The position numbers and the translations under genes are program-made. 52,629 nt of DNA from a virus, in IMG/VR virus record IMGVR_UViG_3300009494_000004, positions 1 to 52,629 of that record. One strand, given 5' to 3'. This document shows positions 7,891 through 52,629 of the stretch, piece after piece (position 1 is the first letter of the stretch; every line of letters starts with the position of its first letter). The notes beneath the pieces are model-generated. The model did not search any database. It was not told the DNA's origin and was given only the letters and a program-made list of their open reading frames with translations.

Positions 7891-7892
7891 GT

Positions 7893-10768: not shown

Positions 10769-13031
10769 CTACGTCAAGGCCTCCGGTTACGTTTCTTTCG
10801 CTCACGGTAAGAAGCGACCGTCCGTCGTTCACGAGTTTTTGCAACGTAGGGGCAAGCTCTTTTTCAACGTAATCCGTGGACATAACGTTACCCGATATAT
10901 CCACGTTAAGCACAACCATACTACCGCTTCCGTTACCACTACTGTTGCCCGCTGCCGGGATATTCATTTGCCCTACGCCAACCGCAAGCTCCCCGCCTCC
11001 GGCGGCCTCTTCGGTCACTCCGCGCGTGAAATGACGCATGAAGTCACGCCCCTGATCCGCGGCCATTCTGTCGTTCGCGGTCGTATCGAATAGGCTACCG
11101 AGCATACCAAGTATACCGCTGCCAGTCTTAAAACTGCCGACAAGTTCAAGCGCTACGGACTTCAATACCGCGTTGACAAACAGGTTAATAAAGTCAGCCG
11201 CCATATTTTTGAATATGCCGCGCGACTTTGTTTCCATGACGGTGAGCGTCCCTATCGCGTTAGTGACCGCGCCTTGTACGGAAGTCTCCAAACTGGTGAC
11301 AAACGTTTGCACCGGCCATATCATACGTTCGTACGTTTCGGCCCATATTTGCTCTTTTGTCGCCGCGTACCCCTTGTCGAGACTTTCCAGTTCGGCAAGG
11401 TGGACCGCATGCAGGTTCTCTGACGCAATTTTGCGTTCTTCGTCCGTCAGTTGAAGAGTATCATCCAGCGCGATAACGGATTCCCGATATTCTTGGTTGA
11501 GTTGGCGTCGTTCGCGCTGATACTGCTGTTCACGATCCGTCAAATTAAGAATGTTCGCCTCAAAGGCTACCAGTTCCACATCGGCGAGTTCTTTTGCACG
11601 TGTTTTCGCGGACTCGATACGCTGTTTTTCAAGTGATTTGTCAAACGCGGCCCAATGGTCAAAAGTCTTCTGCTGCGCCTCGTTGGCTTTACCGATAATG
11701 TCAGCAATATCGCGACCGGCGTCACTATCGCCTCCCCCGCTATCGACATCATCGGGCTTCTGACCGATATTTGCATAAGCGGCTGCGATATTCTGCGCGT
11801 GCTGGAGGACGGCAGCGTCGATATCCGCAAGGTCTTTTTCTGTGTCTTCCCAACTGGCTTTGAATCCGTCGAATACGTGGTCCATCTCGTAACCCGCTTG
11901 CGCCCATGCGGTCAAATCGGTCGGATTCTTCAGAGCGGTGAACAACGCCTCCGCTGCGGTGACTACGGAGTTTATCGGATCGACAAACGAAACTTTCCAC
12001 ATTCGCGTTGATATTTGGCCGAGGTTATGCGTAACTTTCGCGCCAAGTATAAGGCCGGATGTAAGTATAGCGATGTCCGCAGCGAGGGTCTGTACGTCCT
12101 CGACGCTATCGCCCTTGAACGCCGCCGTCAGTTCTTTAGTAACGTTTTTGGCTTCGGTTACCAATATGCCAAGCGTCGGCGTGAGGTACGAACCGACCGC
12201 GACCTGCAAATCCTGAATGTAGCGGGGAAACGAACGCAGCTGCTTGGAGACGTGTTGCATGGCCGTCTCGTACGCGCCCGCTATGAGATCGCCCTTTTCA
12301 AATATCGCGTTAAGCATCGCTTGCTTCTTCTGCGTTTCAGTTAAGCTTGTGGCCGTAACGCCGAGTTCGCTCGAATACGCTTTATATACTTGGCGGAGGT
12401 TGAGGACAATACCAAGCTGCTTTAGCTGGCGCGGCATCAACTTGGCCGTAGAATCGATGAGCATCTGGAACGCCTCGGACGAGTTTGTCTGGCCTATCGT
12501 CGCGGCGTCCTGGGCAATTTTGCCGAGTTTCACGGCGTCCGTAAAGCTGATCTGCGCCTGCGCCGACCGCAGAAGCGCCTGATTCGCCTCTTTCTGCGCG
12601 ATGCCGCTTTTCCGCAGCGATGTGACGTAACCGTCGATCTGCTCAGTGGAATAGCCCGCTTTCTGCCCGACGAAATTAAGTACCGCGCCGAGTTCTTCGA
12701 CGTTTGCCGCGACCATTGTTGCTTCGCCGATTTCGCTGACAAGCCACTTGAAACCGCTGGCGAGTTTAGATATCGTCTTCTCGAATACAGACGCCGCGAG
12801 GTTGCCTATCGCGATGCCGTTCGTGAACTTCGTGAATACCTTTGCGCTCTTCTCCCCCACCGTAGATAGCTGCTTGACCTGGCGTGTCAGCTTCTTGATC
12901 TCGTTCTGCGACTTGACCATTTGCGGACCACCGAGGGCATTTAGCTCCTTACGGAGACGCTTGATTTTTGCGGACGCCCGTTCTTTCGCTTCGAATACGA
13001 GGGCGAATTTCTGTTCGCTGGTCGCTGCCAT
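10758..13031 (-). CDS. Tail tape measure protein
   Basis: 757 aa, Ala/Gln/Lys-rich helical sequence with a glycine-rich C-terminal region. It occupies the canonical position after the chaperone pair. Confidence 0.8.
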   Translation of the reverse strand: MAATSEQKFALVFEAKERASAKIKRLRKELNALGGPQMVKSQNEIKKLTRQVKQLSTVGEKSAKVFTKFTNGIAIGNLAASVFEKTISKLASGFKWLVSEIGEATMVAANVEELGAVLNFVGQKAGYSTEQIDGYVTSLRKSGIAQKEANQALLRSAQAQISFTDAVKLGKIAQDAATIGQTNSSEAFQMLIDSTAKLMPRQLKQLGIVLNLRQVYKAYSSELGVTATSLTETQKKQAMLNAIFEKGDLIAGAYETAMQHVSKQLRSFPRYIQDLQVAVGSYLTPTLGILVTEAKNVTKELTAAFKGDSVEDVQTLAADIAILTSGLILGAKVTHNLGQISTRMWKVSFVDPINSVVTAAEALFTALKNPTDLTAWAQAGYEMDHVFDGFKASWEDTEKDLADIDAAVLQHAQNIAAAYANIGQKPDDVDSGGGDSDAGRDIADIIGKANEAQQKTFDHWAAFDKSLEKQRIESAKTRAKELADVELVAFEANILNLTDREQQYQRERRQLNQEYRESVIALDDTLQLTDEERKIASENLHAVHLAELESLDKGYAATKEQIWAETYERMIWPVQTFVTSLETSVQGAVTNAIGTLTVMETKSRGIFKNMAADFINLFVNAVLKSVALELVGSFKTGSGILGMLGSLFDTTANDRMAADQGRDFMRHFTRGVTEEAAGGGELAVGVGQMNIPAAGNSSGNGSGSMVVLNVDISGNVMSTDYVEKELAPTLQKLVNDGRSLLTVSERNVTGGLDVDVD

Positions 13032-25688: not shown

Positions 25689-27424
25689 TTTCGTTTTCTC
25701 TCCTTCGTGTTCTCTTCCGTTCCGATAACGGCATGCGTATCACCGCCAATTATTCGCGCCTTCGATTCGGGTTTCCGCACCTTCGCGCTGTTAGCGAACC
25801 ACACTCTGTCGGACGCAACACTGTTCGTCATTCCGCTTACGAACCACGCGAGCCATCTATACGCCGCTGAATGGAAAAAGTGGTCACACCCTTTCGTCCA
25901 TACCGGCCTTCCGCCCGCGTCGGTTACGCGACTCGGCACGGTCATCTGCCTTACGTACTCGCCGTTTGCCCTCGTGCGCCAGTCCGGCGGTATCCTCGTG
26001 TTGCCGTCCTTATATGACTTCACCATAAGGTCAAGTAGTTCCGTGCGGTTCGTCTCCAGTATCTGCTTTTCGTACTCCCTGTTGCATACCGGCGTCTTGA
26101 TCTGATCTTTCGCCCGGTAATAGCACATCCAGCGGAAGCCCTTCTTTTTCACGAAGTCGCGCGTCTCCATGTAGCCGCCGCCCTGAGCATCGATGACGTG
26201 GCTCACTACGTTGAAGGTCTCCTCAAGCGTCTCAACCTCCGCCCACCTGTCGACTTCCGTATGGATTATATCGTAAAGGACGCTATTCAGCACTATAGAT
26301 ATCGTGCATGTAAATTTCTTCCCCTGATCCGTGCCCATTACCGTACGGTACGCCTCCGCGTCAAATACGGTCGGCAGCTTGGTCGCGGCCTTCCGCAATA
26401 GCGCCTCGTCCATTTTGAACTCGACATCCTCGTATTCGACGGCGAGGTAATTGTTATGAAAGTTCTGCATCGCCGTTGGGTTGTTCTCGGCCTTCACGAA
26501 TTTTTTGAACAGCTTTATGATGTCCGCAGCGACGCCGCGCTTGTCGACGAACAGCCTCGATACGCGGTATCCGCTCGCAAGCCCTCGTCCGGGGTTCATT
26601 GCTATCCAACGACCCGGTCCCGTGCGATCCATAGGCGCGCCGCATTTCGCGCACGCCGCCATACCGGACGGGTGACGGAGCCGCCAGCCCGCGTCGCAGC
26701 GCTCAACGAAGTTAATGTACCAGTCAAGAACCTGCTCGTGACCACATTCCGAACAATCTACGTGCCATTCCTTCTGGTCGCTCTCCGCGTACTCGGCGAG
26801 AATACCGAAGCCCTCGCGTGTCGGGTTTCCATACTTCCACACGTGCGGACGTTTCGAGTTTTCTAAACGGTCGTATGCGTATAGAATGTTTTCCTGGTTC
26901 AGCAGATCGAACTCGTCGAAGAACAGAACGTCGCACGGAAACTCGAAGAAGTCAGCGAGCACGTTCGACCCGACGAACTTCCAGCCCGCGCCAAAGAACG
27001 ACTTGTACACATTAGAGTCGAACTTCTTTTCGTCGAGGTTTTGCACAGCCTCCGTGTATAGCGGCGAGCGCGCCTTCATTTTATCGATACGGTCATATAC
27101 AAACGTTTTGCGTGCCGTGCCCGACGGCATGACGTACATTCCGCGCAGCCCCTGCCTCGCGTATGTATACATCGCGCAGAGCGCATGCTCCGTGAGGTGT
27201 ACCTGCGAGCTTTTCACGACAACCAGGTCGCGGCTGTCGTCTTTATATATGGCTGCAAGCCAAGGTTTATCAGAAAACGTCATCCGCGACCCGTTCGTCG
27301 TCCGGTGGTGAACGATGCCCATGAACAGACGAGGGTATTTGTCGGCCATCTCGGACATCCCCGCGCCTATCAACTTTTTCGCTTCTCTATTCGCACTTGG
27401 CATTGTTGGTTTCTTTTTTAGCAT
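25676..27424 (-). CDS. terL: Terminase large subunit, GpA (lambda)-like
   Basis: 582 aa with a Walker-B-like VLFFDEFD and a CSECGH...CAKCG zinc ribbon typical of GpA-type terminases. Canonical position. Confidence 0.8.
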   Translation of the reverse strand: MLKKKPTMPSANREAKKLIGAGMSEMADKYPRLFMGIVHHRTTNGSRMTFSDKPWLAAIYKDDSRDLVVVKSSQVHLTEHALCAMYTYARQGLRGMYVMPSGTARKTFVYDRIDKMKARSPLYTEAVQNLDEKKFDSNVYKSFFGAGWKFVGSNVLADFFEFPCDVLFFDEFDLLNQENILYAYDRLENSKRPHVWKYGNPTREGFGILAEYAESDQKEWHVDCSECGHEQVLDWYINFVERCDAGWRLRHPSGMAACAKCGAPMDRTGPGRWIAMNPGRGLASGYRVSRLFVDKRGVAADIIKLFKKFVKAENNPTAMQNFHNNYLAVEYEDVEFKMDEALLRKAATKLPTVFDAEAYRTVMGTDQGKKFTCTISIVLNSVLYDIIHTEVDRWAEVETLEETFNVVSHVIDAQGGGYMETRDFVKKKGFRWMCYYRAKDQIKTPVCNREYEKQILETNRTELLDLMVKSYKDGNTRIPPDWRTRANGEYVRQMTVPSRVTDAGGRPVWTKGCDHFFHSAAYRWLAWFVSGMTNSVASDRVWFANSAKVRKPESKARIIGGDTHAVIGTEENTKERKRKWHV

Positions 27425-30320: not shown

Positions 30321-30584
30321 TTAAAAGTTAAGCAACCTTGGTTGTTCGTCACGCTCCCAGGCGTCCACAAGGTGCTTCGTGACCGCTTTGCGCAACTGCG
30401 GACCGTTTAACCGGGTCAGCTTTTTGGCGGTCGCGCTTATATTAAGCTTCTGCGTCCAGTCCGCGTAGTTAATAATGCTTTGCCATACTGAGCCGGGGTA
30501 GTTGTCTGCCATTTGTCTAATCGAGGGCGCGTTCACTTTTTCTCCTTGCGTGCTGTCTAATACTATAACCCAGTTTTTGGTCAA
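30321..30584 (-). CDS. Hypothetical protein, first gene of the late operon
   Basis: 87-aa ORF with a TTG start preceded by AAGGAA at 5 nt. Confidence 0.5.
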   Translation of the reverse strand: MTKNWVIVLDSTQGEKVNAPSIRQMADNYPGSVWQSIINYADWTQKLNISATAKKLTRLNGPQLRKAVTKHLVDAWERDEQPRLLNF

Positions 30585-30606
30585 AGGTTTCCTTTTTTAT
30601 TCACTG

Positions 30607-30629: not shown

Positions 30630-30656
30630 TGCCGCCTGACATCATTTTGTTTTTGA

Positions 30657-30679
30657 AATTACTACCCGTTGTAGTAATT
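30657..30679. promoter_or_regulatory. Operator-like perfect palindrome AATTACTAC-N5-GTAGTAATT
   Basis: aattactac ccgtt gtagtaatt, with perfect 9-bp arms. Confidence 0.4.
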
Positions 30680-30770
30680 AGCGTTACTGCTCATTTGTGC
30701 AATATAGGTCAAAATGCGTCATAGCCTATCAGCGCAAAGACGATTTCACTCATAGGTATATAGACCTACC

Positions 30771-30999
30771 AGTAGTACCCCTATTTCTTGGAGTTCTTGT
30801 AACTCTTGCAATGGGTTACGGAAGTTGAAATTTCAGTCAAATTGACGAAAAACCGAGTCCTTGTAACTCTTGTAACGACTTACGCGGATTTGAAATATAT
30901 TAAAATAGCTAACTCGTTGCAGGAGTTGCAAGAACTAAGGTTTTCGTTATTACCGTCAGTACGGACCAGTAGCTAACTCGTTGCGGGAGTTGCAAGGAC
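30771..30999 (+). repeat. Element A: 229-bp internally palindromic element with four 23-bp boxes (two forward, two reverse) around an AT-rich centre. Inverted homologue of 51983..52212.
   Basis: Boxes GTYCTTGYAACTCYYGYAAYGRS at 30793..30815 and 30857..30879 (forward), and at 30913..30935 and 30977..30999 (reverse). Box spacing is 64/56/64 bp and the centre is atttgaaatatattaaaata. Flanks also align with the reverse complement of element B. Confidence 0.8.
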
Positions 31000-31089: not shown

Positions 31090-31638
31090 TCAGCGCCTTT
31101 GTTCCATTTCGTTTATGTCGCGGCGCACCCAGTCGCGAATTTTCCATATTTTCGCCCTGACCGTCGACGCCCCACGCCCAAGGCCGAGTATTTCGGCAAT
31201 CTCTTTGCAGGGTATTTCGTCCGCTCGGAGGGCCATAACTTCGATGGCACGGCCTATCGGGCATCGCATTAGCGACCGTATAATGTCTTCGGCTTTCTCT
31301 TTCGTTAACCTGGCGTTTTCGGTATGCGTCCAGACATTGGTCGCGCTTTGAATTTCAGCGTTCTTTATCTCGGCTATCGTCGGCGAACCGCCCCTCGCCC
31401 GGCGCTGCTGGTGATGACGCCGCGACATAAGCAAGCACGCACCTCTTAACAGGTCAGCAGCGCGGGCCGGGTCGTTCGGCTTACCTATAACGTATGTTAC
31501 GGCGTTTTGCAGAGCGTCTTCGCCGTTCTCGCCCCGCACGCCGAGCTTCCACAGGTAGCCGAGCAGGGCGGGTCGCCTCTTCGCGTACGCCCGACCGACG
31601 GCGTCTGCCCACGTATCGCTATCGCATAATAACGTCAT
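31090..31638 (-). CDS. ECF-like sigma-70 family sigma factor
   Basis: Region-2-like LLGYLWKLGVRGENGEDALQNAVTYVI and region-4 HTH RAIEVMALRADEIPCKEIAEILGLGRGASTVRAKIWKIRDWV. 182 aa, the last gene of the early operon, ATGA-coupled. Confidence 0.65.
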   Translation of the reverse strand: MTLLCDSDTWADAVGRAYAKRRPALLGYLWKLGVRGENGEDALQNAVTYVIGKPNDPARAADLLRGACLLMSRRHHQQRRARGGSPTIAEIKNAEIQSATNVWTHTENARLTKEKAEDIIRSLMRCPIGRAIEVMALRADEIPCKEIAEILGLGRGASTVRAKIWKIRDWVRRDINEMEQRR

Positions 31639-37220: not shown

Positions 37221-39264
37221 CTCCTTTTTCTACGGACGTGCAGCTGCTCCACGAGTCGCCCGCCTCGATATCGACCGCAAAGGGGACAAACCCTTCGACA
37301 TCAATTTCCATAGCGTCGCGTATCATCGGCACAAGTCTGTCGCGATACTTTTTCGGTGTATGAAATAACAGTTCGTCGTGGACCGTTAATAGCATTTCGA
37401 CCGGGAACTTCGCAGGGACAATGATTCTATCATAACATCGTTTTATTGCGATCTTCATAATATCGGCGGCGGTGCCCTGCACTTCCTGGCTGATGGCGCG
37501 GCGTTCCCATTTCGCGCGCTCACCGGGAACGTCCGACCAGATTCCAGTCATCCCGCCGTCGTTTTCGTTGCCAGTCAACGGACGAATGCGACCAAAGTAA
37601 GTCTTCGCCCATCCACGCTGAAACGCAAGGCGCTTCCTACGACCAAGCCACGCAGTAAGTGCGGGCACAGTTTCGAACCATTTATCGATAAATTTCTGCG
37701 CTTTGCTTTCACTAATGTTGTATAGAAGAGCAAACGCATACGCGGTTTGTCCAAAAAGTGCTCCAAAATTTTGGCCTTTCGCTTTTTTATACTCTTCTTC
37801 AGTATAGTCCGCGCCGAACATTTTGATAGCGGTCGCAACGTGCGGCGATTCACCTTTCGCAAATGCATCAATCCATACTTTTTCTTTCGCAAAACTCGCC
37901 GGTATTCTAAGTTCAATCTGCGAATAATCTGCATCGACAAATGTCCAATCCTCATCCGATATAAACGTTGCACGGATATTAACTGGTACGTAGTCACCAG
38001 CGCACTTTGGAATGTTTTGTAAATTCGGTCCCGAACATGAAAATCTACCTGTTGCCGGACCGACTGACCAAAACGACGCGCGTAGTTTTCCGTCGTCATC
38101 CATTGCCTTTGGTATCTTCGATGTGAAACTGGATCGCAGCGTGCCAAGGCTTGATCCGTTCAATAACATTTCAACTACTGAATGCTTATTTTTCAATGAA
38201 TTGATAAACTTCTTTCCAGTAGCGCCGTAACCTGACGCCGTGTACGCTACCGGCTCCAATAACCGCCCGTCGACATCAATAAGTGCTGTTTTCTTATCGT
38301 GCGAAAGCGTTTTTTTGTTCCAGTTACCGAAAAGCAAAACGGATTTCTGCATCCAGCTTTTGAGGTTAATTTCCGTCGGTTTGCCGTACCGCTCCTCGGA
38401 CGCTATCTCATTCACCCGTCCGTTGATGACTTCGTACGCCTGCCCAAGCACCTTGTCCTGATCGGCAAGCAAGTCCAAGTTTATCCGTACGCCCGCCTGC
38501 TCCATATGGATGACTGGACGCACGACCTCATGCTCAAGGTTCCATGTTCCGCGCTGTTTTTCTTTCGTCTCAGCCAGTTCGGGAAGAAGCCATAATCTCC
38601 AGGTGAAATCAGCGTCCTGACAGCCGTAAATACGTTGCATCTTATTGTTAAGTTTGAGGAAGTCGCCGGGCATAAACTTTGACTTCGGGACACCGATTAT
38701 CTTGCTCATCGACAGCGTCGACCCGACGCCGGTGAGGTGCTTTTCGGCGAAACCTTTTAACCCTCCCGTCATTTTGTTATTCGGCCACGTAAGGTGGACG
38801 CCGATGAACACATCCTGGAAATCGTGGACTTCAACTCCGTGGTTCTCCAAAATGGGGATATCGTATTTCGCGTTTGCCATGACGAGCGTACTTTTCTTTG
38901 CCTTTACGGCGAGCGCCCTTAAACATGCCTTTGAGGGCATTGGAACCCAATAGGCCTGTGCGGGTTCGCAGCATACCGAAAAGCCGTACAGCTCCGTCTT
39001 GCCGGGCCGTATATCGAGACCGCTTGTTTCCGTATCTACCGCAAACTCGTTACCAAATCCGTTAAGTACCTTCCGTAATTCGGTAGCCGTTTTAATTTCA
39101 ACGTACCGGCAACCTTTATCCATTGCTTCGGCGTATTGAACCTGAAGCCCGGCTTCTTTCTCCAGCTTCAGTTGCGTCTTGGTTGGCGGCTTGATCTTTT
39201 TTTCTTTTTTCCTTTTAATTTCAGGCACTGTACGCCTCCAATGCGGCTTCCGCAGCCTCGACAT
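37192..39264 (-). CDS. Family-A DNA polymerase with a 3'-5' exonuclease domain
   Basis: Exo I FAVDTETSGL, motif A DADYSQIELRI, motif B KGQNFGALFG and motif C TVHDELLFH. Confidence 0.85.
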   Translation of the reverse strand: MSRLRKPHWRRTVPEIKRKKEKKIKPPTKTQLKLEKEAGLQVQYAEAMDKGCRYVEIKTATELRKVLNGFGNEFAVDTETSGLDIRPGKTELYGFSVCCEPAQAYWVPMPSKACLRALAVKAKKSTLVMANAKYDIPILENHGVEVHDFQDVFIGVHLTWPNNKMTGGLKGFAEKHLTGVGSTLSMSKIIGVPKSKFMPGDFLKLNNKMQRIYGCQDADFTWRLWLLPELAETKEKQRGTWNLEHEVVRPVIHMEQAGVRINLDLLADQDKVLGQAYEVINGRVNEIASEERYGKPTEINLKSWMQKSVLLFGNWNKKTLSHDKKTALIDVDGRLLEPVAYTASGYGATGKKFINSLKNKHSVVEMLLNGSSLGTLRSSFTSKIPKAMDDDGKLRASFWSVGPATGRFSCSGPNLQNIPKCAGDYVPVNIRATFISDEDWTFVDADYSQIELRIPASFAKEKVWIDAFAKGESPHVATAIKMFGADYTEEEYKKAKGQNFGALFGQTAYAFALLYNISESKAQKFIDKWFETVPALTAWLGRRKRLAFQRGWAKTYFGRIRPLTGNENDGGMTGIWSDVPGERAKWERRAISQEVQGTAADIMKIAIKRCYDRIIVPAKFPVEMLLTVHDELLFHTPKKYRDRLVPMIRDAMEIDVEGFVPFAVDIEAGDSWSSCTSVEKGVESVEEKEN

Positions 39265-39988
39265 CGCGCTCGTATAGATGCAGATTAAGCGCGATATTCG
39301 TGAACCGTCCGCAGGGTCGGCTAAGCTCGTCGGCCATCGCCATCTGGAGTCCGTGCATCGTGAACACGTCGTTGCGAAGACCTGTATTTACATCCTGCGA
39401 GCGGAATACAACTGTCGCACATAAACCGCCATTCCTTATCGTAAACTGAAGGCAGATACAGCACGGAAAATCTTTCGTCGGAACCGCCTTGTGCTTGACC
39501 TGATTTACGTTCAACACGACCTGCCTGCTGTCCGAGTCTTTTCGTAGCTTGTCAACCGCCCATATCCATTGGTTTATATCTGTAACGTAGTAGCCCGTGT
39601 CGCCCTCGTGCTTCGACGGCACCGTCATATCGAATCGCTGACTGAATAAATACTGTCCGTACGCACTATTGACACGTATACCGTCGTCGGAAAATTGCTC
39701 CCAAAGCTTTGTAAAACTTTTTCTCGTCACCGGATGTACAAGGTCGGCAATTCTGTCAGATCCGCTCAAGTACCAAGCAAGTTCGGCCTCAGCGTACGGC
39801 ACCCTCGTGTGAAACGGCTTTAACGTTGACACAAAATGCTTGTCCTGATAACCGTTTATATAATCAAGCGTAAGAATGTAATTGTTTACCTCACGCACGG
39901 CCAAACTACGCGGCGCGGACTTCTGCCCAGCCAATGTCGCCCTAATGGCATCATAATACTCTTTATTGAAATCTGTAAATAGCGACAT
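39221..39988 (-). CDS. Thymidylate-synthase-fold enzyme with the dCMP-hydroxymethylase-type active-site signature (deoxycytidylate C5-modifying enzyme)
   Basis: It aligns with E. coli ThyA across ELAWYLSG, NSAYGQ, DSDSRQVV, FPCCICLQF and FRSQDVNTGLRND. The residue 31 positions after the nucleophilic Cys is Asp (RND, as in T4 gp42 D179), not the Asn of dUMP-specific enzymes. The ATG at 39988 has AGGAGAG upstream. Confidence 0.65.
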   Translation of the reverse strand: MSLFTDFNKEYYDAIRATLAGQKSAPRSLAVREVNNYILTLDYINGYQDKHFVSTLKPFHTRVPYAEAELAWYLSGSDRIADLVHPVTRKSFTKLWEQFSDDGIRVNSAYGQYLFSQRFDMTVPSKHEGDTGYYVTDINQWIWAVDKLRKDSDSRQVVLNVNQVKHKAVPTKDFPCCICLQFTIRNGGLCATVVFRSQDVNTGLRNDVFTMHGLQMAMADELSRPCGRFTNIALNLHLYERDVEAAEAALEAYSA

Positions 39989-40454
39989 CGACTCTCTCCT
40001 GTATCTTTTCAGTTTCCCAGTTAAGCAAACCCCCGTTCCATTTCTGTTCGAATCTGCAATCCTCAAACTTATTTAACGGTACGGAACTACGCCCGGCGTT
40101 TTTTGCGACTTTCGCAGCGGCCCGCCACCTGTCAACGGGAACAGCATACGCGCACTTGTTGCGCGGACCTTTGTAATGCACGATAATGAGAAATCCCACA
40201 CCGCCCGCGCGCTCAATATCTTCCAGTTCGTCAAGCTGACTTTCACGAACTCCACGTAACGGCTGAGAAATACCGTGTTTTACAATTTTGAATTCAAACC
40301 CGACCGCTATTCCGTCCCAACAGGCAATAACGTCAACAGCGCGTGTCCCCGTATCAAGTCCATACCGGGGATCTGCGATCTTATGACACCAAAGCTCCGA
40401 CTTGACACGTCGCCAGCTTTTCGTTATTTGGTTTGTTATCTCGGTTTCTCTCAC
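39963..40454 (-). CDS. PD-(D/E)xK nuclease, Holliday-junction-resolvase-like
   Basis: VDVIACWDG..VGFEFK gives a D...E.K catalytic motif. GTG start with GGAGA upstream. Confidence 0.5.
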   Translation of the reverse strand: MRETEITNQITKSWRRVKSELWCHKIADPRYGLDTGTRAVDVIACWDGIAVGFEFKIVKHGISQPLRGVRESQLDELEDIERAGGVGFLIIVHYKGPRNKCAYAVPVDRWRAAAKVAKNAGRSSVPLNKFEDCRFEQKWNGGLLNWETEKIQERVDVAIYRFQ

Positions 40455-40814: not shown

Positions 40815-41107
40815 ATCTTAACCCTCATTACTTTGACTTTTTTCTGGACGTACGACAGCGCCTCTACGGTATTCCGTATTGTGTAGAAACCCGTACGCCA
40901 CGCGATTACGATAGGCTTACCGTACCGGGTGCGGTCCGACGCTGCCCATGCGTCAAAATGGTCTTTGAATTTTTTCGTCGTTTCGTCTTCAGTGGGGGCA
41001 TTGACCATAACCGCATTCAACTGCGCAACCATCATCCTCTTAAACGAGGTAAGGTCCATAAAATCCCCAAGCGAAAATCTGTATTTTGTTTTTTGTTTCT
41101 TACTCAT
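40811..41107 (-). CDS. Hypothetical protein
   Basis: The ATG at 41107 overlaps the upstream stop (ATGAGTAA). The track start is 41137. Confidence 0.45.
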   Translation of the reverse strand: MSKKQKTKYRFSLGDFMDLTSFKRMMVAQLNAVMVNAPTEDETTKKFKDHFDAWAASDRTRYGKPIVIAWRTGFYTIRNTVEALSYVQKKVKVMRVKI

Positions 41108-42098
41108 TGTTTTGTGTCCACATTCCGTAGCCTGCATGGTTCGGACTGATTATCCTCGGCAACGTGCCGGATTCCTGTATGGCCCGCATAACCTGCCAAT
41201 ACTCTATGACGCGCTGCTCCAGCGTATGGTAGCGTAGCACATTCTGCTGTCCGCACGCCGCCATCTCCTCGCGAATATCATCATGCTCTAAGTAGAAATC
41301 TATTTTACGCACCAGGTCGTCAAACGTGTCATCGTGCGTAACACAATGCGTGCCCTTCTCCCACATATAGTCGAAATTCTGCACCTTGTGGTTGATAAAC
41401 GCCACGCCGGAACCCATCGCGTTATACGTACGATTACTGACGACAAACGGACCGGGATTCAGAAATAGGCTGCGCTGTATATTGAACGCCACTTTGCTTT
41501 GAGCATAGGCCTCGGCCATATTCCATTCACGAATCTCGCCGGGTCGCCCTATTTTGTCGAGGACGAATTTGCATTTGTACCGACGGCTAAGTTCATTAAG
41601 CCATTTTCTTCTAATCTTATCGGTCGATCCTATGAAGCACAAGTCGTAGATTTCCTTCGACAAATCAAGCCGCGTCGGCAGCGCGCCGTCTTTCATGCAG
41701 GAACGGTGATCGAAGTATTGAGGCATCCACAGCACGGTCGGCGCGAGGTCGCAGTACCGGCGAGCCGTCTCAAGTATGGAGAACACGAGCACGTCGGCCC
41801 GGTTCGCAAGCTGACGACGCCACATCCTGTCGCGCGTCCGCTCCGTCATGTCGGGATACCAGAACAGAAGCTTCGCACCGCTTTTTCGTATTTGGCGGTA
41901 GTAGCGCCGGAAGTCCGGACGTAGCGCAAAGCAGAACACCCAATCGGGCTTATACGACTCAAGCACGGGTAGCATCTCCTCTGGATGCGCGCGCGACCCG
42001 GTCAACATAACGTCGAATCCCTGACGTTTCGCTTCCTTGTACAAATACGGACCGGCGAACCGCTTCTGAAATCCGCACGCCCAAACGAGAACCTTCAT
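41100..42098 (-). CDS. Glycosyltransferase, CgeB/GT1-like (GT-B fold)
   Basis: [10 protein letters not shown]..., LCFIGS..., VAFNIQR....[16 protein letters not shown] resemble the DUF3880/Glyco_trans_1_2 (CgeB) family. ATGA-coupled start at 42098. Confidence 0.55.
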
Positions 42099-42343
42099 AC
42101 GGATACTCCATGACATTTTTTGTACTTAAGACCGGAATCGCACGGACACGAATCGTTCCTGCCAATCTTATAATAGGGACGCCGATAGGTTCCACGTACG
42201 GATGAATCCCAGAACGTCATACACTTACGCCCGTATTTGTCCCTCTTGTCCGGTTTCCGCTTTTTGGGTTGCGCGGTTACGCTTTCACGCTTACGCAGAA
42301 AACTAAATAGCCACGCAATTATTTTCGCAAAAATCTTCATCAT
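42095..42343 (-). CDS. Small protein with an N-terminal hydrophobic helix and a C-terminal SEC-C zinc motif
   Basis: [17 protein letters not shown] is a SEC-C motif. ATGATGA coupling to the upstream gene. Confidence 0.55.
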
Positions 42344-43179
42344 AGACTGTCCTTTAGCATGCGTTTCGCCTCGTTGACTATGACCGACGAATCCGGCAAC
42401 CACATTTTCTTTTGTCTCCAGTGCGCATCGCCTGGACTTTGCATTGTCTTGACGCGCGTATTAAACGGATTCCAATGACTTTGAACCCGTAGACTGTGGT
42501 CGCGGCACGTTTGCCAACACAACTGTGGAAGCCCGCACAGTGTCGCCAGGTGTGCTGGTCCCGACTGCGGACTAATGATGAGTTTCGACGACGCCATTAA
42601 ATCCGTTAATGCGGTAAGGTTAATATCTCGGCAATCCGTGCCCCCTACGTGCAAAGACGACTCAGATTTTCCAATACATACGACGCTGTATCCGGCGCGC
42701 ATAAGCGATTCTGAAACTATCTTTGCATGCTTTTTCGGCCAATTCCTAAATCCGGTGCTGCATTTGTCGGTATCGCGAACATGGAGCAAAACATCCGGTA
42801 CAAGGCAACCGTCGACCTTTTTGCCCAACCGAATAAGCGACTGCCGCGTAGACCAATACTGTGAATCCCACCACCGCTGCGGATACGCATCCGGTTTTAT
42901 CCATTCCGCGTTTGGCGCAAAATCCTCAATGTAAAAGCGAAAATTCGTGATTTTCTGTCTATCGACAGATCGGTCGTAACACATATCAGTTTGGTTGTCG
43001 CCTTCGCCGAAATGTAATATGTCGTCGGCAAAGTCCGTATATAGTGCATCGTGTCCAGCCCGACACGCGACGACGACTCGGTCGTACTTCGGCGCAATTT
43101 TCCTGAGAAACCCCTGCCAACAAAACAGTTCCCAACCGAGCTCGCCTATGAATGGTCCGGCAAAAAGTGTCTTCATCAT
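42340..43179 (-). CDS. Glycosyltransferase, GT9 (heptosyltransferase)-like GT-B fold
   Basis: N-terminal [12 protein letters not shown] and C-terminal [19 protein letters not shown] resemble GT9 enzymes. AAGGAAA Shine-Dalgarno. Confidence 0.5.
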
Positions 43180-43921: not shown

Positions 43922-43976
43922 TTCACCATCCTTTTTTCCGGTTATAGTTTTTTCTTCAGTTCATGTAAATTCGCGA

Positions 43977-44039
43977 AAACGCCGCGACAACGGGGCTTCT
44001 GTGTCTTTCCAGTGTCCGCCCCGGAATAGCGCGGCGTTT
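43977..44039 (-). other. Nested inverted repeat (10-bp outer stem aaacgccgcg/cgcggcgttt, 6-bp inner stem cggggc/gccccg); candidate terminator or attenuator
   Basis: Read directly. On the minus-strand RNA the outer stem is followed by UUUUCGCGAAUUU. Confidence 0.35.
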
Positions 44040-44047
44040 GCAAACGG

Positions 44048-45711: not shown

Positions 45712-46485
45712 TTATTTCTTCTCCATATTTTTCAATTTAGCCTTTGCCTCATCAACCTCAAACTTGGATTCTAAGATAGTGACTTTTTCGGCCTTTATGT
45801 CCCGTATCGCGGCGATCTGGCCATCCTTACACTGTTTACAGATACCATGCGACTCGCCGGTTTTCCGGGTCTTCTCGAACTCGTCGTCCTTAAGGGCGAT
45901 AAGGATGAACTCGGACCCGTCGTACCCGCGTACGACATACGACCGGCACCACGCGCAGAGATGAACGGCGTCCAGCTTACAGCATGACGCTATAAAAGTC
46001 TCGCGCCGAGTCTTTTCGACGCCGACGGTTTCGCAGCTAAGAGCTATTTCGTAAAGGTCAACACCAAATTTTTTGCAGACCGCAAACGCCTGACCCATCA
46101 TCCAGTCGTATTCATCAGCAATGATGTCGTCTATGGCCTGTTCATCGTCGTCACTATTGATTTTCGTATAGTCGGCGAACAACATATCGGGGTTAAAGCA
46201 AACGCCAATCCATTCTCGGCAATGAACCAAAAACTGTTTGACATCCTTAAGATTTTCAATTTTCACAGGCAGCTTTGGAATATCGCGAACCACGTCAGTC
46301 TCAACATTATGCTCAGCAAGTTCGTACTCAAGCTCCTCGGCCTTAATAGCCGCCCATTGAACATCAGTTACGCAATATAATGTAGCGGTTTTGCCATCAC
46401 GATATACAACCTCAACAGTATAAAGGTCATTAGCTTTCCAACTTACGATTTGAGCAACCTTTTTACGATCTGTCTGGTTTTCCAT
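45712..46485 (-). CDS. Hypothetical protein
   Basis: The ATG at 46485 is preceded by AAGGAGA. The track start (GTG at 46509) coincides with the predicted +1 of promoter-like motif P3. Confidence 0.5.
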   Translation of the reverse strand: MENQTDRKKVAQIVSWKANDLYTVEVVYRDGKTATLYCVTDVQWAAIKAEELEYELAEHNVETDVVRDIPKLPVKIENLKDVKQFLVHCREWIGVCFNPDMLFADYTKINSDDDEQAIDDIIADEYDWMMGQAFAVCKKFGVDLYEIALSCETVGVEKTRRETFIASCCKLDAVHLCAWCRSYVVRGYDGSEFILIALKDDEFEKTRKTGESHGICKQCKDGQIAAIRDIKAEKVTILESKFEVDEAKAKLKNMEKK

Positions 46486-46516
46486 TACAATCTCCTTGTT
46501 AAGGGTCACTTATATA

Positions 46517-46536
46517 GTAAGCGAATCCCGTGCCAA
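46517..46536 (-). promoter_or_regulatory. P3: sigma-54-type -24/-12 promoter-like motif TTGGCAC-N5-TCGCTTAC (minus strand)
   Basis: The reverse complement reads ttggcacgggattcgcttactatata. It shares 16 identical nt (attcgcttactatata) with P1 at 1125..1150. It lies in the only sizeable intergenic gap inside the early operon. Confidence 0.5.
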
Positions 46537-46654
46537 GATCCAGAAAAAACCGTAACACGTTGAAACACAATACAATAGCGTAATCGACGAAAGGTCAACC
46601 GCAGAAAAAATGCAAAAAAGTGTGGGTTTTTAGCCATATTATGTAGATCGCTAC

Positions 46655-47926
46655 CTATACTTCCTCACGTAGCCATTCAAGACGAGAAAAATCTTGTATA
46701 ATCATGTTATCGTTGTCATAAATAACGCGAGATATTTTCGCATCAAAGGGACACGCAGCCCGTGTAAGCGCCGCCGCGACGGCCCGGATAAGATCCTCTG
46801 ACGTGTTTACTGGAACGTTCTGCGTAACGTGCGCGGGTTTCGCACCTTTGTCGTAACTGAGTTTGAAATCGTCCGGCAGACCCATAAAATCCATACACTC
46901 CCGCACGGACATAAATCTCGACTTGGTCGGATGCTTCCACCACCTCATCCCGTGGATCATCAGGGTTGGCGTGAGATCGCGCACAAGCACCGGAGTCTCC
47001 CGGCGAAAACCAAGACCCTGGTCCGTCTTTGCCTTGACCTTAATTACGATGTCGTTCCACTGTTTCGCGTTCGCCCGGTACTCGTCACCGCCCCTGACAC
47101 GCGGACGGACCGACTCGGCGGCAAGCCACGCAATCAGCTCCGAAAGTAAACCCTGCTTGACGGCTAACGAAATAACGTAACTTTTGGCGTTTGGCTCTCC
47201 CCCAATACTAACATTTTTCGAATCTATCCAGCCCTTGCGACGCGCATAACGAATCAAGGAGTCATTGGCGTAATTACTATTAAGAAACTCCTCGTCGTGC
47301 GGTCGCGTACCGAATACTTTACCGCATCTTTCGAGAAACTCCGAAACTGCCAACGGCCTTCCCCTTGTCTCCAGGGCGATAATCCTGGGCGTACCCTTCC
47401 ACAAAAGGCCGTACGTACGCCTTCGCTTCTGCGGTATCCCGTGGTTCGCCGTATTGACCTTTACCATAGTGAGTGAGTAGCCCAGGCTTTTTGCAAGCTC
47501 GGCAACACGCTTCGCCATCGGACGCCCCTTGTCCGTCGCCAGCAGGGGCGCGTTTTCAAATACGTGTACACCCGGACTGAAAGCCGTTATGGCGTAGCGA
47601 ATTGTCCGCGTAATCCAGTCGTTCGTTGGACAGTCGCAGCCTTTCGTTGGTGAATTATTCCCCATCGACAGACCGCCACACGGCGGAACGGAATGCGTGA
47701 TATCTATACGAGAGAATTTATCCGTGTTCGTTACGAAATACGGAACCTTTGGCCAGTAGCTCCTGAGACTTGACGAGTGCGCGCCGCCGAATACATTTCC
47801 GGCCCCGTCAAGCATATCAACAATGACCTCCGGCAGTCGGCCGATTGCGCGCGCCGCGCCAATGGCGAGTCCACCCGTGAGCGGCATGATGGCTGCATGC
47901 GTTAAATTTGTTTTCCGTCTCAGCAT
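46655..47926 (-). CDS. Divergent DNA cytosine-C5 methyltransferase-fold protein
   Basis: Motif IV-like PPCGGLS (canonical PCQ), motif VI FENAPLL (ENV), motif VIII QKRRRTYGL, and C-terminal RECMDFMGLPDDF and QNVPV (canonical GNAVP). Confidence 0.6.
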   Translation of the reverse strand: MLRRKTNLTHAAIMPLTGGLAIGAARAIGRLPEVIVDMLDGAGNVFGGAHSSSLRSYWPKVPYFVTNTDKFSRIDITHSVPPCGGLSMGNNSPTKGCDCPTNDWITRTIRYAITAFSPGVHVFENAPLLATDKGRPMAKRVAELAKSLGYSLTMVKVNTANHGIPQKRRRTYGLLWKGTPRIIALETRGRPLAVSEFLERCGKVFGTRPHDEEFLNSNYANDSLIRYARRKGWIDSKNVSIGGEPNAKSYVISLAVKQGLLSELIAWLAAESVRPRVRGGDEYRANAKQWNDIVIKVKAKTDQGLGFRRETPVLVRDLTPTLMIHGMRWWKHPTKSRFMSVRECMDFMGLPDDFKLSYDKGAKPAHVTQNVPVNTSEDLIRAVAAALTRAACPFDAKISRVIYDNDNMIIQDFSRLEWLREEV

Positions 47927-49000: not shown

Positions 49001-50305
49001 CTATCTTCCCATAAGCTTATTCAAATAACGGTCCACGTTTACCTGAAGCCGCGCAAGCGGGCCGCGCGTGGCGTTCCAAACGAACGCCATCGTCCCGCGC
49101 TTCTGCCAATTAAAGGACTTCAGCCGATGCCATTCGTTCGGCGCAGTTATTCCCGGCAGATACTCGACAGACACGCCTTGCTCTTCCATTGTGGACGGCT
49201 TGCTGGAGCCTTTACGGTGCTGGTCACCGAGGTGCCATTCGCGGTATCCGTTCTTCGTCCGCGCCCACGCCTCCGGCATTTCGTTCGCCATAAGCGCCGC
49301 GAGCCGTATTGGCGCGACGCTGTGCCCGTGCTCGTACCCTATGAGATTGCATCCGTATTCATGAAATTTGTACGGCGACGACGTTGCGTCCACCGTCACC
49401 TCCGGGTCGTTCTTGTAGTACGCCTGAAGCACACGGCCAAGCATGAACGACGTCGTCCGGTCGTGGTTTCCAGGAATGAAATAAAGACGAACCGGCGCAA
49501 TCTCGCGCACTCTGTCGACAATCTGTATAGCGAGCGCTTCGCCGGTCACGAACGTGTTGTAGTATGCGTCCGCCTCCGGCTGCCCGGTGTGCTGCGTAGT
49601 TTCCTGCCATATCGTGTCGGAGTGGAAGAAATCGTTTCCCATTGGCATCACAATTTCTTCAAATGGCCCGAACGAAGCGGCGAGGCTGATTATTTCCTCC
49701 AACGACTCCATGACCATCTGCGCACAAAACTCCGGCGACCATTCAGCGTCGGACGCGGGCTTGAACGTTCGCATCCCATAGTGCGGATCCATAAGCGCGA
49801 TCTCGAGCGCGTTACGTTCATTCTTCTGCCCTAACTTCAGCCGTCTGATTTTCGGTTTCGGCGACTTACTCTCCAGTTGCATAAGCAGCTTACCGACGGC
49901 GTCCTCGACGACCTCCGGCACGGCGCGCTCAAACACTACTTTAAGTCGAACATTCTGAACTGTAAACGGCTTGTCCTTTTTTTCCGGTTCGCGAATCTTC
50001 ATCGTCACGTCGTAACTGGAATGCTCAAAACTTTTAACGCGCCACACCGCCATATCGACATTCAGTTCACATATAATATCGTCAATAGTTGCGAACCTGC
50101 ATCCGTCGGCTTCGACAACCCACTGACCACTTTTCTTTTGCTGCTTAAAGACGTTTTTCTGAATTTCGGTTTTGTCGTCCAAACGGTCAAACCTCCTCTT
50201 ATAAACATTTTCAGATATACCGAGGCTCCGCGACGCGGCGGCTTTATTACCAAATTTTACGTACGCTTCACGTATTTGTTTGTCGGTAGCTTTTAGTTTT
50301 GCCAT
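49001..50305 (-). CDS. Calcineurin-like metallophosphoesterase with an N-terminal HTH-like region
   Basis: LMDPHYG (DxH), MGNDFFHSD, IPGNHDR (GNHD/E) and GYEHGH. N-terminal AASRSLGISENVYKRRFDRL. Confidence 0.6.
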   Translation of the reverse strand: MAKLKATDKQIREAYVKFGNKAAASRSLGISENVYKRRFDRLDDKTEIQKNVFKQQKKSGQWVVEADGCRFATIDDIICELNVDMAVWRVKSFEHSSYDVTMKIREPEKKDKPFTVQNVRLKVVFERAVPEVVEDAVGKLLMQLESKSPKPKIRRLKLGQKNERNALEIALMDPHYGMRTFKPASDAEWSPEFCAQMVMESLEEIISLAASFGPFEEIVMPMGNDFFHSDTIWQETTQHTGQPEADAYYNTFVTGEALAIQIVDRVREIAPVRLYFIPGNHDRTTSFMLGRVLQAYYKNDPEVTVDATSSPYKFHEYGCNLIGYEHGHSVAPIRLAALMANEMPEAWARTKNGYREWHLGDQHRKGSSKPSTMEEQGVSVEYLPGITAPNEWHRLKSFNWQKRGTMAFVWNATRGPLARLQVNVDRYLNKLMGR

Positions 50306-51322: not shown

Positions 51323-51882
51323 AGTAATCCTAACTCTTTGTTTGTAACGCAAAAAGATTTGTTAAGTTTAATTGCAGTGTCAACAGCGCACGCCGCTTCG
51401 ATAGCGGTAGAAAAATGACTGATAGAAACCCGCCGCTTATTTTGTTGAGTGTAAGCCCGGTAACGACCGTTTGATCGTTGTTGAACACCGCGAAATCCAC
51501 TTATTCCAATCTTTGCGCCACGACTATTGCGTATTAAAGCTTTGGGGCGATTGTGGTTTTCTTTCGCTGTTTCATAACAGAGATTATCGGCTCTGTTATT
51601 AGTACAACACTCATCAATATGTGAAGTCTGTAATCCTAAAGGGCAGGGACCGAGCCAAGCGCACGCTACAAGTTGGTGAATAAAATGAATATGTGGTTTT
51701 CCGTCACGGTATAGGCTTACTACCACCCGACCATTCATTTTTCCACCTGTTTGCTGCCTTAAAATACGCGGACATTTGTAATCCAATAATCTTTTCCATA
51801 AACGTACCCGACCTAATGATGAAACTTCATAATCCGGGTATCCTTCAATTTGTCGCCATTCTTCGTTTGACTGATTTTCCAT
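51319..51882 (-). CDS. HNH homing endonuclease with NUMOD4 and AP2 DNA-binding modules
   Basis: EEWRQIEGYPDYEVSSLGRVR (NUMOD4), HIDECCTNNRADNLCYETAKENHNR (HNH) and GFRGVQQRSNGRYRAY...FSTAIEAACAVDTA (AP2). AT-richer than the genome. Confidence 0.7.
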   Translation of the reverse strand: MENQSNEEWRQIEGYPDYEVSSLGRVRLWKRLLDYKCPRILRQQTGGKMNGRVVVSLYRDGKPHIHFIHQLVACAWLGPCPLGLQTSHIDECCTNNRADNLCYETAKENHNRPKALIRNSRGAKIGISGFRGVQQRSNGRYRAYTQQNKRRVSISHFSTAIEAACAVDTAIKLNKSFCVTNKELGLL

Positions 51883-51890
51883 ACGCTAAG

Positions 51891-51910
51891 GTAAGCTAAT
51901 TCCGTGCCAA
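51891..51910 (-). promoter_or_regulatory. P2: sigma-54-type -24/-12 promoter-like motif TTGGCACG-N4-TAGCTTAC (minus strand)
   Basis: The reverse complement reads ttggcacggaattagcttac. The GC of the -12 element lies 13 nt before the ATG at 51882. The motif sits 73 bp downstream of element B. Confidence 0.45.
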
Positions 51911-51982: not shown

Positions 51983-52212
51983 GTCCTTGTAACTCCCGCA
52001 ACGACTTAGCTACTCGTCCGTACTGGGGGCAGTAACAAAAACTCAAGTCCTTGTAACTCCCGCAACGACTTACGCGGTTTAATATATCTCAAATTCCCGT
52101 AACTTATTGCAGGAGTTACAAGGACTTGGTTTTTCCCTTTTTTACGGCTACTTCCGTACAGCCGTAACCCGTTGCGGGAGTTGCAAGAACTCCAAGAAAT
52201 AGGGGTACTACT
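51983..52212 (-). repeat. Element B: inverted homologue of element A (30771..30999), with four 23-bp boxes around an AT-rich centre
   Basis: Boxes at 51983..52005 and 52047..52069 (gtccttgtaactcccgcaacgac, twice), and at 52103..52125 and 52168..52190 (reverse orientation). The centre tttaatatatctcaaat is the reverse complement of the element A centre apart from one base. The flank aggggtactact is the reverse complement of agtagtacccct at 30771. Confidence 0.8.
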
Positions 52213-52287: not shown

Positions 52288-52629
52288 AATTACTTTGCGC
52301 AATAGATGACTTGTATTTCAAGTACCAAATACACCACCGCCTGCCCGAATACCCTGCTGACCGACTGAAGACCCGTGAAGGTCGTCCCCTGGACCTCTAA
52401 GATCGTTCTTGCGCAGTAACGCCAAGAATAACCTTAAAGCGAGCAGGGAAGCCCGCTACAGCACGCTGGTTGCCGCTCCCCCTGAACACCCCGCTGACCG
52501 GCTGGAGGCCTTCAGCGACCGGGGCGTCGCCTCATACTTTTCTCACACGCGTGCCGGGCGGGTGTTTAACAGTTGAACATGTTTGCCCTCGTGTTTGCCT
52601 CATACTTTTCGCCCGATTTCGGTTAAAAG
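52288..52629. repeat. 342-bp unit X, terminal copy (identical to 1..342)
   Basis: See the feature at 1..342. Confidence 0.9.

Follow-up and report, generated by a model that had tools for sequence, protein, structure and literature searches.

Sigma-54 promoters of bacteria carry a GG at -24 and a TGC at -12 relative to the transcription start, and initiation from them requires an enhancer-binding ATPase (PMC3844500). In the searched literature, Pseudomonas phage YuA was the only phage sigma-54-type example found. The YuA record annotates three active promoter-trap fragments, all among structural genes, as '-24/-12 consensus', and a cappable-seq study found one sigma-54-like start site in this phage, P015 (PMC10914365). 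Here we describe a -24/-12 motif in the virus record IMGVR_UViG_3300009494_000004, the whole 52,629 nt of which were analyzed and are called the window. The copy under study (the focal copy, 46511-46536 on the minus strand) lies in a gap of the early genes, and its sequence indicates that it is probably a host sigma-54 promoter heading the second early transcription unit. Sigma-54-type phage promoters have already been reported in YuA; the unexpected part is their placement ahead of early units without a phage activator.

The motif resembles glnAp2 of enterobacterial glnA (TTGGCACAGATTTCGCTTTATC). Their first 18 bases are identical at 16 of 18 positions, including the non-consensus TCGC at -15 to -12, the GG/GC spacing is the same, and on the position-specific scoring matrix (PSSM) described below glnAp2 reached 15.7 bits and the phage motif 15.1-16.4 bits. 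A check of all 5426 E. coli genomes placed the glnAp2 sequence upstream of glnA in each, and the list of Salmonella sigma-54 sites includes it too (PMC3844500). However, glnAp2 has defined NtrC enhancer sites upstream, while none was recognized at the phage motif, and the phage motif adds a conserved extension, TACTATATA, from -10 to -2.

YuA, a siphovirus, resembles the window in having no RNA polymerase of its own, a family-A DNA polymerase and a thymidylate-synthase homologue. Both also appear to use host sigma-54-type promoters beside other promoter classes, with experimental support in YuA and sequence support in the window. However, the YuA -24/-12 fragments are located in the structural (late) region, whereas the window sites head early units. 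The enterobacterial PSSM reached a maximum of 11.7 bits in YuA versus 15-21 bits in the window clade, and therefore the sites of this clade are much closer to the canonical motif. No sequence relationship between YuA and the window was detectable; megablast found no close relatives among GenBank phages, and the best DNA polymerase match there was 31% identical. A paper on phage resistance and rpoN in Salmonella was considered and set aside as not relevant, the effect there being metabolic or RpoS-mediated.

Three copies of the motif were found in the window, all in non-coding DNA and, as the original prediction had stated, all ahead of a gene start; in each case the start codon is on the strand of the motif. 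The focal copy reads TTGGCACGGGATTCGCTTACTATATA on the minus strand and its twin, P1 (1125-1150), reads TTGGCACAGTATTCGCTTACTATATA on the plus strand, just as had been given. The two differ at two positions (8 and 10) and not at three, so that they are 24/26 rather than 23/26 identical; the 16-nt identical core, ATTCGCTTACTATATA, was correct and represents the last 16 nt of both. No pair of the focal/P1 type arose in 100 dinucleotide-preserving shuffles of the window. The third copy (51885-51910, minus strand; TTGGCACGGAATTAGCTTACCTTAGC) retains the 5' 20 nt and loses the TATATA part, its 3' half being degenerate. The distance from the end of the motif to the start codon is 25 nt for the focal copy (ATG at 46485) and 33 nt for P1 (ATG at 1184), which fronts a reversed gene cluster (1184-2657). 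For the third copy it is 2 nt; the ATG here, at 51882, belongs to the first early gene, which encodes an HNH/NUMOD4 endonuclease. The focal copy and P1 are on opposite strands as claimed, but the distance of 45 kb between them is true on the linear contig only; it is about 6.9 kb on a circular or terminally redundant map. In the focal copy, the -24 element TGGCAC occupies 46535-46530 (GG at 46534-46533) and the -12 element TCGCT 46524-46520 (GC at 46522-46521), followed by the TACTATATA extension. The resulting GG-N10-GC arrangement (TGGCACGGGATTCGC, 46535-46521) has identical spacing in 18 of 18 copies from the window and its relatives.

The sigma-54 likeness was measured with a PSSM built from 29 intergenic Salmonella sigma-54 sites supported by chromatin immunoprecipitation (PMC3844500, Table 3). 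Across both strands of the window, the three top-scoring 18-mers were the three motif copies: P1 (16.4 bits), the focal copy (15.2 bits) and the third copy (15.1 bits). Leave-one-out scores of the real promoters ranged from 14.0 to 23.0 bits. Simulated sequences (1000, Markov-1) had on average 0.31 sites with at least 15 bits, and three or more occurred with P = 0.006, a value which leaves aside that all three copies are directly upstream of genes. The fourth-best match, TGGCACGTAGATTGTTCG (26750-26767, minus strand, 14.3 bits), lies inside the terminase gene in the orientation of that gene and is probably due to chance.

Conservation was examined in independent metagenome contigs reached through homologues of the flanking genes. 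The closest relative, L017, whose early nuclease is 84% identical, has exactly three copies, and these are syntenic with those of the window: one before the first early gene, one after the C5 methylase gene and one before the reversed cluster. The P1 orthologue is located at 7891 (minus strand) in L017, and orthologues of the third copy are at 8553 in L017 (15.2 bits) and at 3720 in L018 (20.9 bits). In L018 (60% identity) the sequence ahead of the first early gene is TGGCATACTATTTGCTTA. The focal copy is retained in L007, L009 and L012, in which the downstream protein is just 50-61% identical over 28-38% of its length. The focal 26-mer is identical at 26 of 26 positions in L009 and has one or two changes in L007 and L017. 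When the five orthologous focal gaps were aligned (alignment A2), the longest conserved block ran from the -24 element through the ribosome-binding site (RBS), and therefore the element appears to be functional.

A constraint profile was made from 18 copies in seven related phage sequences. The positions T-27, G-25, G-24, C-23, A-22, T-15, G-13, C-12 and T-11 were invariant, while positions -19 to -17 were almost without information. This pattern, constrained at -27 to -20 and -15 to -11 with a free spacer, reproduces the sigma-54 logo. The TACTATATA extension was kept solely among gene-preceding copies, and the whole 26-mer was conserved in the focal and P1 copies. Beyond the clade, 40 distant loci with early-nuclease homologues (L021-L060, 488 kb) had no match to TGGCA[CT]-N5-T[TCA]GC, and therefore the motif is restricted to this clade. 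About 5.6 matches would be expected there from length, and low GC content explains part of the difference. Scans of IMG/VR with the motif, the two flanking early genes, the DNA polymerase and the primase-helicase found nothing, and a metagenome scan with the motif found one contig only. The view that this is a -24/-12 motif read by a sequence-specific factor, put forward in the original prediction, is thus supported by an independent matrix, synteny, the constraint profile, a poor fit to sigma-70 and the lack of a T7-type polymerase.

The same 26 nt may also be read as a promoter for a housekeeping sigma-70-family factor of the host, with TTGGCA and TATAAG as the -35 and -10 hexamers, 16 nt apart, used alone, with a phage cofactor or as an overlap with the sigma-54 site; we regard this as unlikely. 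Both hexamers together match at 10 of 12 positions in the focal and P1 copies, a scan tool called P1 a promoter (TTGGCA-16-TATAGT), and TATAGT is retained in both P1 orthologues. Another gap carries TTTACA-N17-TATAAC, which has ACTATAA in common with the motif. For a cofactor there is a parallel in YuA, where promoters conserved over the whole motif, CTTTACTTCTTCGG-N8-CACTATAC, are annotated as phage-cofactor-dependent (PMC10914365). The 28-nt repeats of YuA ('sigma-70 promoter requiring phage-encoded cofactor') resemble the window motif in whole-length conservation, in location before gene clusters and in an ACTATA-type -10-like box. Because this box is common to the YuA repeats and the 3' half of the motif, TACTATATA may be a second control element. 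However, the YuA repeats lack GG-N10-GC, whereas the constrained positions of the window motif follow the sigma-54 logo.

A sigma-70 rule that demands a -10 hexamer carrying A as its second and T as its sixth base, 16-18 nt from a -35 hexamer, was passed by only 2 of the 18 copies, both of P1 type. The focal copy has TATAAG, and the sixth base is G in all four focal orthologues; a -10 box is wholly absent from the first-gene and L004 copies. Moreover, two copies have lost the initial T of TTGGCA and retained GGCAC, and the invariance of T-15, G-13, C-12 and T-11 inside the supposed spacer would be left unexplained. As the P1-type copies alone pass the rule, P1 may be a dual promoter like that of glmY. 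In the glmY/glmZ promoters of Enterobacteriaceae a -24/-12 element overlaps a -35/-10 element, as it does in the P1 copies, and an IHF site lies upstream (PMC3045617). The GlrR sites and the dependence on rpoN and glrR were demonstrated for glmY/glmZ, whereas the focal orthologues of the window clade lack the key T of the -10 box.

The motif is also found in a different arrangement in the relative L004 (58% terminase identity), which has eight TTGGCACG-N4-TTGC copies in the gap before the late genes. These eight sites lie within 0.8 kb of non-coding DNA (L004:5686-6495) and scored 15.0-21.4 bits. Two are in tandem on the minus strand and the other six form three face-to-face pairs with their -12 elements about 5 nt apart, and therefore only one orientation could be occupied at a time. 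The four-base spacers in the L004 palindromes are not mutually complementary, an observation that favors a protein site over a hairpin.

The L004 cluster bears on a further explanation, in which the motif is a non-promoter site for sigma-54 holoenzyme or another protein, serving as a roadblock, an insulator behind the terminator, a repressor of an upstream sigma-70-like promoter or a sink for host sigma-54. The holoenzyme stably binds many non-promoter sites in an inactive state (PMC4591121), and at Salmonella glmY sigma-54 binding represses an overlapping sigma-70 promoter (PMC3045617). The six face-to-face sites of L004 cannot all be productive, a sigma-70-like promoter lies 35-60 nt upstream of the motif in the focal gap, and the lack of an activator would also fit a silent site. 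However, all 10 of the 10 sites outside L004 are directly upstream of a gene start (by 2-320 nt), in the orientation of that gene and with a conserved leader. The first-gene copies have no convincing alternative promoter, and the upstream sigma-70-like element is poorly conserved. A non-promoter role is accordingly considered quite improbable for the focal copy.

Another candidate reader of the motif is a specificity factor encoded by the phage, either a sigma factor of the extracytoplasmic function (ECF) type or another early protein, in which case the sigma-54 likeness would be a coincidence. The window encodes an ECF-type (group 4) sigma factor of 182 aa (31090-31638, minus strand), the last gene before the gap preceding the late genes, and relatives have one too. 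The family profile matched CnrH (8.3e-8), SigH, RpoE, SigL and SigW in PDB over residues 10-174 (range 8e-8 to 3e-4), and Pfam Sigma70_r2, r4_2 and ECF matches were present in family members, so that regions 2 and 4 were both found. One homologue was named sigma24 by JGI, and L004 also encodes an ECF sigma factor. The family is rare, with six homologues in 1.8 billion representative proteins, and its gene is always the last before the pre-late gap. That the 26-mer is conserved in full in the focal and P1 copies is what a dedicated factor would predict, and GGCAC is similar to GGAAC, the core of ECF -35 elements.

However, the copy before the first early gene presumably cannot await a protein that has not yet been made, and the ECF sigma gene is at the end of the replication module. 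Past -11, no -10-like sequence is common to the first-gene copies (from three phages) and the L004 copies, and it is improbable that 11 constrained positions with exact spacing would agree with sigma-54 by chance. A better ECF-type candidate (GGAAAC, a 16-nt spacer and GGTTATAG) is present once per genome, before the late genes. In the window this candidate promoter, GGAAACC-N15-GGTTATAGTATTAG, lies at 30548-30592 (minus strand), directly before the first late gene; in its fuller form the block reads GGGGAAACCTTT-N13-GGTTATAGTATTAG, after which come AAGGAGAAAAA and that gene. The block has a single copy in the window and in L015 (L015:10936-10980), and a near-identical block is found in L016 at about 11105-11150. 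Taken together, these data make reading of the motif by a phage factor very unlikely, and the ECF sigma factor probably serves a separate, single late promoter. Between this candidate late promoter and a nearby repeat array, palindromes of the form AATTACTAC-N5-GTAGTAATT were observed at 30640-30700 (minus strand), with similar ones in L015.

A promoter for a single-subunit RNA polymerase of the T7 type, or an RNA element of a longer leader, is extremely improbable. CTTACTATA superficially resembles CTCACTATA, the T7 promoter core; the T7-type reading was rejected, since Pfam, PHROGs and NCBIfam detected no RNA polymerase gene in the window and all of its open reading frames of at least 500 aa encode other functions or tail proteins. 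For an RNA element, some orthologues have an upstream GGTTAC that could pair with a downstream GTAACC, but this pairing is not kept in L012 or L009. There was no Rfam match and no tRNA, and folding energies were no better than those of shuffles for most sequences.

Several observations weigh against a sigma-54 promoter. No match to PF00158 or another AAA+ activator was found among about 40 open reading frames searched with Pfam, PHROGs and NCBIfam, no open frame of the window has a GAFTGA-like loop, and a Walker A scan returned nothing relevant. A sigma-54 early promoter would be unusual for a phage, because an ATP-driven activator is needed and none was found. There is likewise no enhancer common to the three promoters. 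The scoring matrix is enterobacterial. A search of bacterial genomes aimed at identifying the host gave no close match, and its distant matches were scattered over many phyla. A single 15-bit site is not significant, as shuffles reached a mean maximum of 14.4 bits. The sigma-54 model does not predict conservation of the whole 26-mer with -10 to -2 included, position -14 is C or A instead of the usual T (glnAp2 also deviates at -14), and the P1-type copies fit sigma-70 too.

Two candidates for the activator and the enhancer were tried and rejected. The first was a 434-aa early protein (49001-50305, minus strand), considered because of HTH_8 in homologues; it has an N-terminal helix-turn-helix and a Mre11/calcineurin-type phosphoesterase, and no AAA+ domain. 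With 435 family matches at E <= 1e-10, it represents a Fis-type helix-turn-helix fused to the phosphoesterase; PHROGs labels it a DNA repair exonuclease, and homologues occur in phage contigs and in metagenome-assembled genomes of many phyla. The second candidate was the CTTGYAACTCYYGYAACG repeat arrays, which were considered as a shared enhancer; just eight copies exist, in two groups at 30.8 and 52.0 kb, and the focal site is over 5 kb away from either.

On balance we favor the sigma-54 promoter. The first early promoter must fire before any phage protein exists, which favors the host holoenzyme. Host RNA polymerase with sigma-54 would bind TGGCAC (GG at -25/-24) and TCGCT (GC at -13/-12), with help from an activator, as sigma-54 requires. 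Transcription would start at about 46509 (a G, predicted within 46507-46511 from the geometry, 12 nt past the C of the -12 GC) and give a 24-nt leader with a strong RBS. The focal promoter would head the second early unit, just past the terminator-like end of the first. The same promoter type would head the first early unit (51885-51910) and the reversed cluster (1125-1150). The AT-rich TACTATATA extension probably eases melting or contributes further control, for example through an overlapping -10 box for sigma-70 or a site for a regulator. The late genes would probably be served separately by the phage ECF sigma factor.

The focal gap (46486-46654) had been called the only internal gap of the early operon. 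This is wrong: it is the largest clean gap within the first 8 kb of the operon, and smaller ones exist at about 43.92-44.05, 43.18-43.26 and 42.12-42.34 kb. Read along the minus strand, the gap consists of the methylase stop codon, a hairpin/terminator, a sigma-70-like element, CAAC-N3-TTA, a T-rich stretch, the -24/-12 site, the leader and the ATG. Upstream is the C5 cytosine DNA methylase gene (46655-47926, minus strand; Pfam PF00145, E = 4.6e-17), which closes the first early unit; its gene order is shared by L007, L009 and L017. The terminator-like region (46604-46657, minus strand) starts at the methylase stop codon and closes the upstream unit. Its hairpin followed by CACACTTTTTTGCATTTTTTC looks like an intrinsic terminator; the hairpin is weak in the window and good in L009 and L017, and the block ACACTTTTT-N4-TTTTT is invariant across alignment A2. 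With a terminator-like end followed by a promoter, the "operon gap" therefore appears to be the junction of two transcription units.

Next in the gap is a candidate sigma-70-like promoter, TTGACC-N15-TATTGT (46572-46598, minus strand), which is present in four of the five orthologous gaps with variable quality and escaped the scan tool because of its 15-nt spacer. It is followed by the block TCAACGTGTTA (46553-46563, minus strand), in which CAAC-N3-TTA is invariant in the five orthologous gaps. This block is centred near -49 and resembles WATCAANNNNTTR, which we take to be the IHF core, and is thus a candidate IHF site. The predicted block was counted in favor of a sigma-54 promoter because IHF sites are typical of such promoters; the glmY sigma-54 promoter, for one, requires IHF (PMC3045617). 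Downstream of the motif is a short conserved 5' leader, GACCCTTAACAAGGAGATTGTA (46483-46506, minus strand; columns 170-203 of A2), with the RBS AAGGAG at 46497-46492 and the ATG at 46485-46483. The first gene of the second early unit (45712-46485, minus strand) encodes a 257-aa protein with a conserved Cys/His cluster, and its homologues P0002-P0004 follow the same motif in L007, L009 and L012. Structure prediction of the first conserved early protein gave a mean pLDDT of 38 and was unusable.

Similar arrangements were observed elsewhere. P1 and the focal promoter are both preceded by a hairpin and an interrupted T-tract, TTTTT-NNNN-TTTTTT (1030-1075 on the plus strand and 46604-46657 on the minus strand), and therefore each seems to be insulated from upstream transcription; the same arrangement is present in L017, L007, L009 and L012. 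The gap at 43925-44047 (minus strand) has a GC-rich hairpin and a T-run followed by the sigma-70-like TTTACA-N17-TATAAC; its -10 box, too, is without the final T, and its ACTATAA is also present in the focal motif. At the HNH/NUMOD4 gene (51882-51910, minus strand), the gene start is 27 nt after the T of TGGCAC and has no RBS. The predicted sigma-54 start (about 51883) adjoins the ATG (51882), so that the HNH mRNA would be leaderless. The HNH gene is missing at the equivalent place in L017, which suggests that a homing endonuclease was inserted directly behind the promoter.

The window is a complete or nearly complete tailed-phage genome, with almost all genes on the minus strand. The early module, from 51.9 to about 40 kb, encodes the HNH endonuclease, a Vsr-like endonuclease, the helix-turn-helix phosphoesterase, the C5 methylase, glycosyltransferases and the thymidylate-synthase homologue, and the replication module encodes the family-A DNA polymerase and a primase-helicase. 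The late side, after a 0.7-kb non-coding gap, includes a GroES-like gene, methyltransferases, terminase, portal, a protease-capsid fusion and tail genes. The ends of the contig repeat each other (1-300 = 52288-52587, at least 300 nt identical), and therefore the map is circular or terminally redundant. In addition, a 501-nt unit is tandemly duplicated (1-300 = 502-801) and partial repeats of 150-350 nt are present (1-900 and 52288-52629). The end overlap and the tandem repeats are all in the non-coding region that separates the two divergent early promoters. L007:3744-4688 encodes a 5-hydroxymethyldeoxyuridine DNA kinase domain, and the thymidylate-synthase homologue and glycosyltransferases of the window are at 39221-40066, 41100-42116 and 42340-43179; together these domains suggest that the clade hypermodifies DNA thymidine.

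The CTTGYAACTCYYGYAACG elements form two arrays. Array 1 (51986-52187) has four elements of 18-30 nt, two per orientation, 77-278 nt upstream of the third motif copy and between the divergent early promoters. Array 2 (30796-30996) has four copies, two forward and two reverse, before the late genes. The spacing within the arrays is 64/55/64 nt. They are conserved in L015, L016 and L017, and related arrays in L018 share the core GCAA-YRR-GTTA. The arrays are probably sites of some phage regulator or a replication origin.

Sigma-54 promoters give no transcription before the polymerase has been remodeled by an ATP-driven activator, and therefore they seem a poor choice for the first-expressed genes of a virus. 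The broader proposal, that an uncultivated phage clade runs its whole early programme from host sigma-54 promoters without an enhancer-binding ATPase of its own, is speculative and on present data doubtful. If it were true, these phages would either hijack a host activator that is switched on at infection or open sigma-54 closed complexes in a new, non-AAA+ way, and they would offer a clean system for asking how infection triggers enhancer-dependent transcription. In L004, the eight near-perfect sites may act as a trap or switch for the host sigma-54 holoenzyme at the early/late boundary. The proposal, if true, would also be a caution to annotators that phage early promoters are not always of the sigma-70 type. 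If another factor reads the motif, it would still be a well-defined, conserved regulatory element of an otherwise unannotated phage group.

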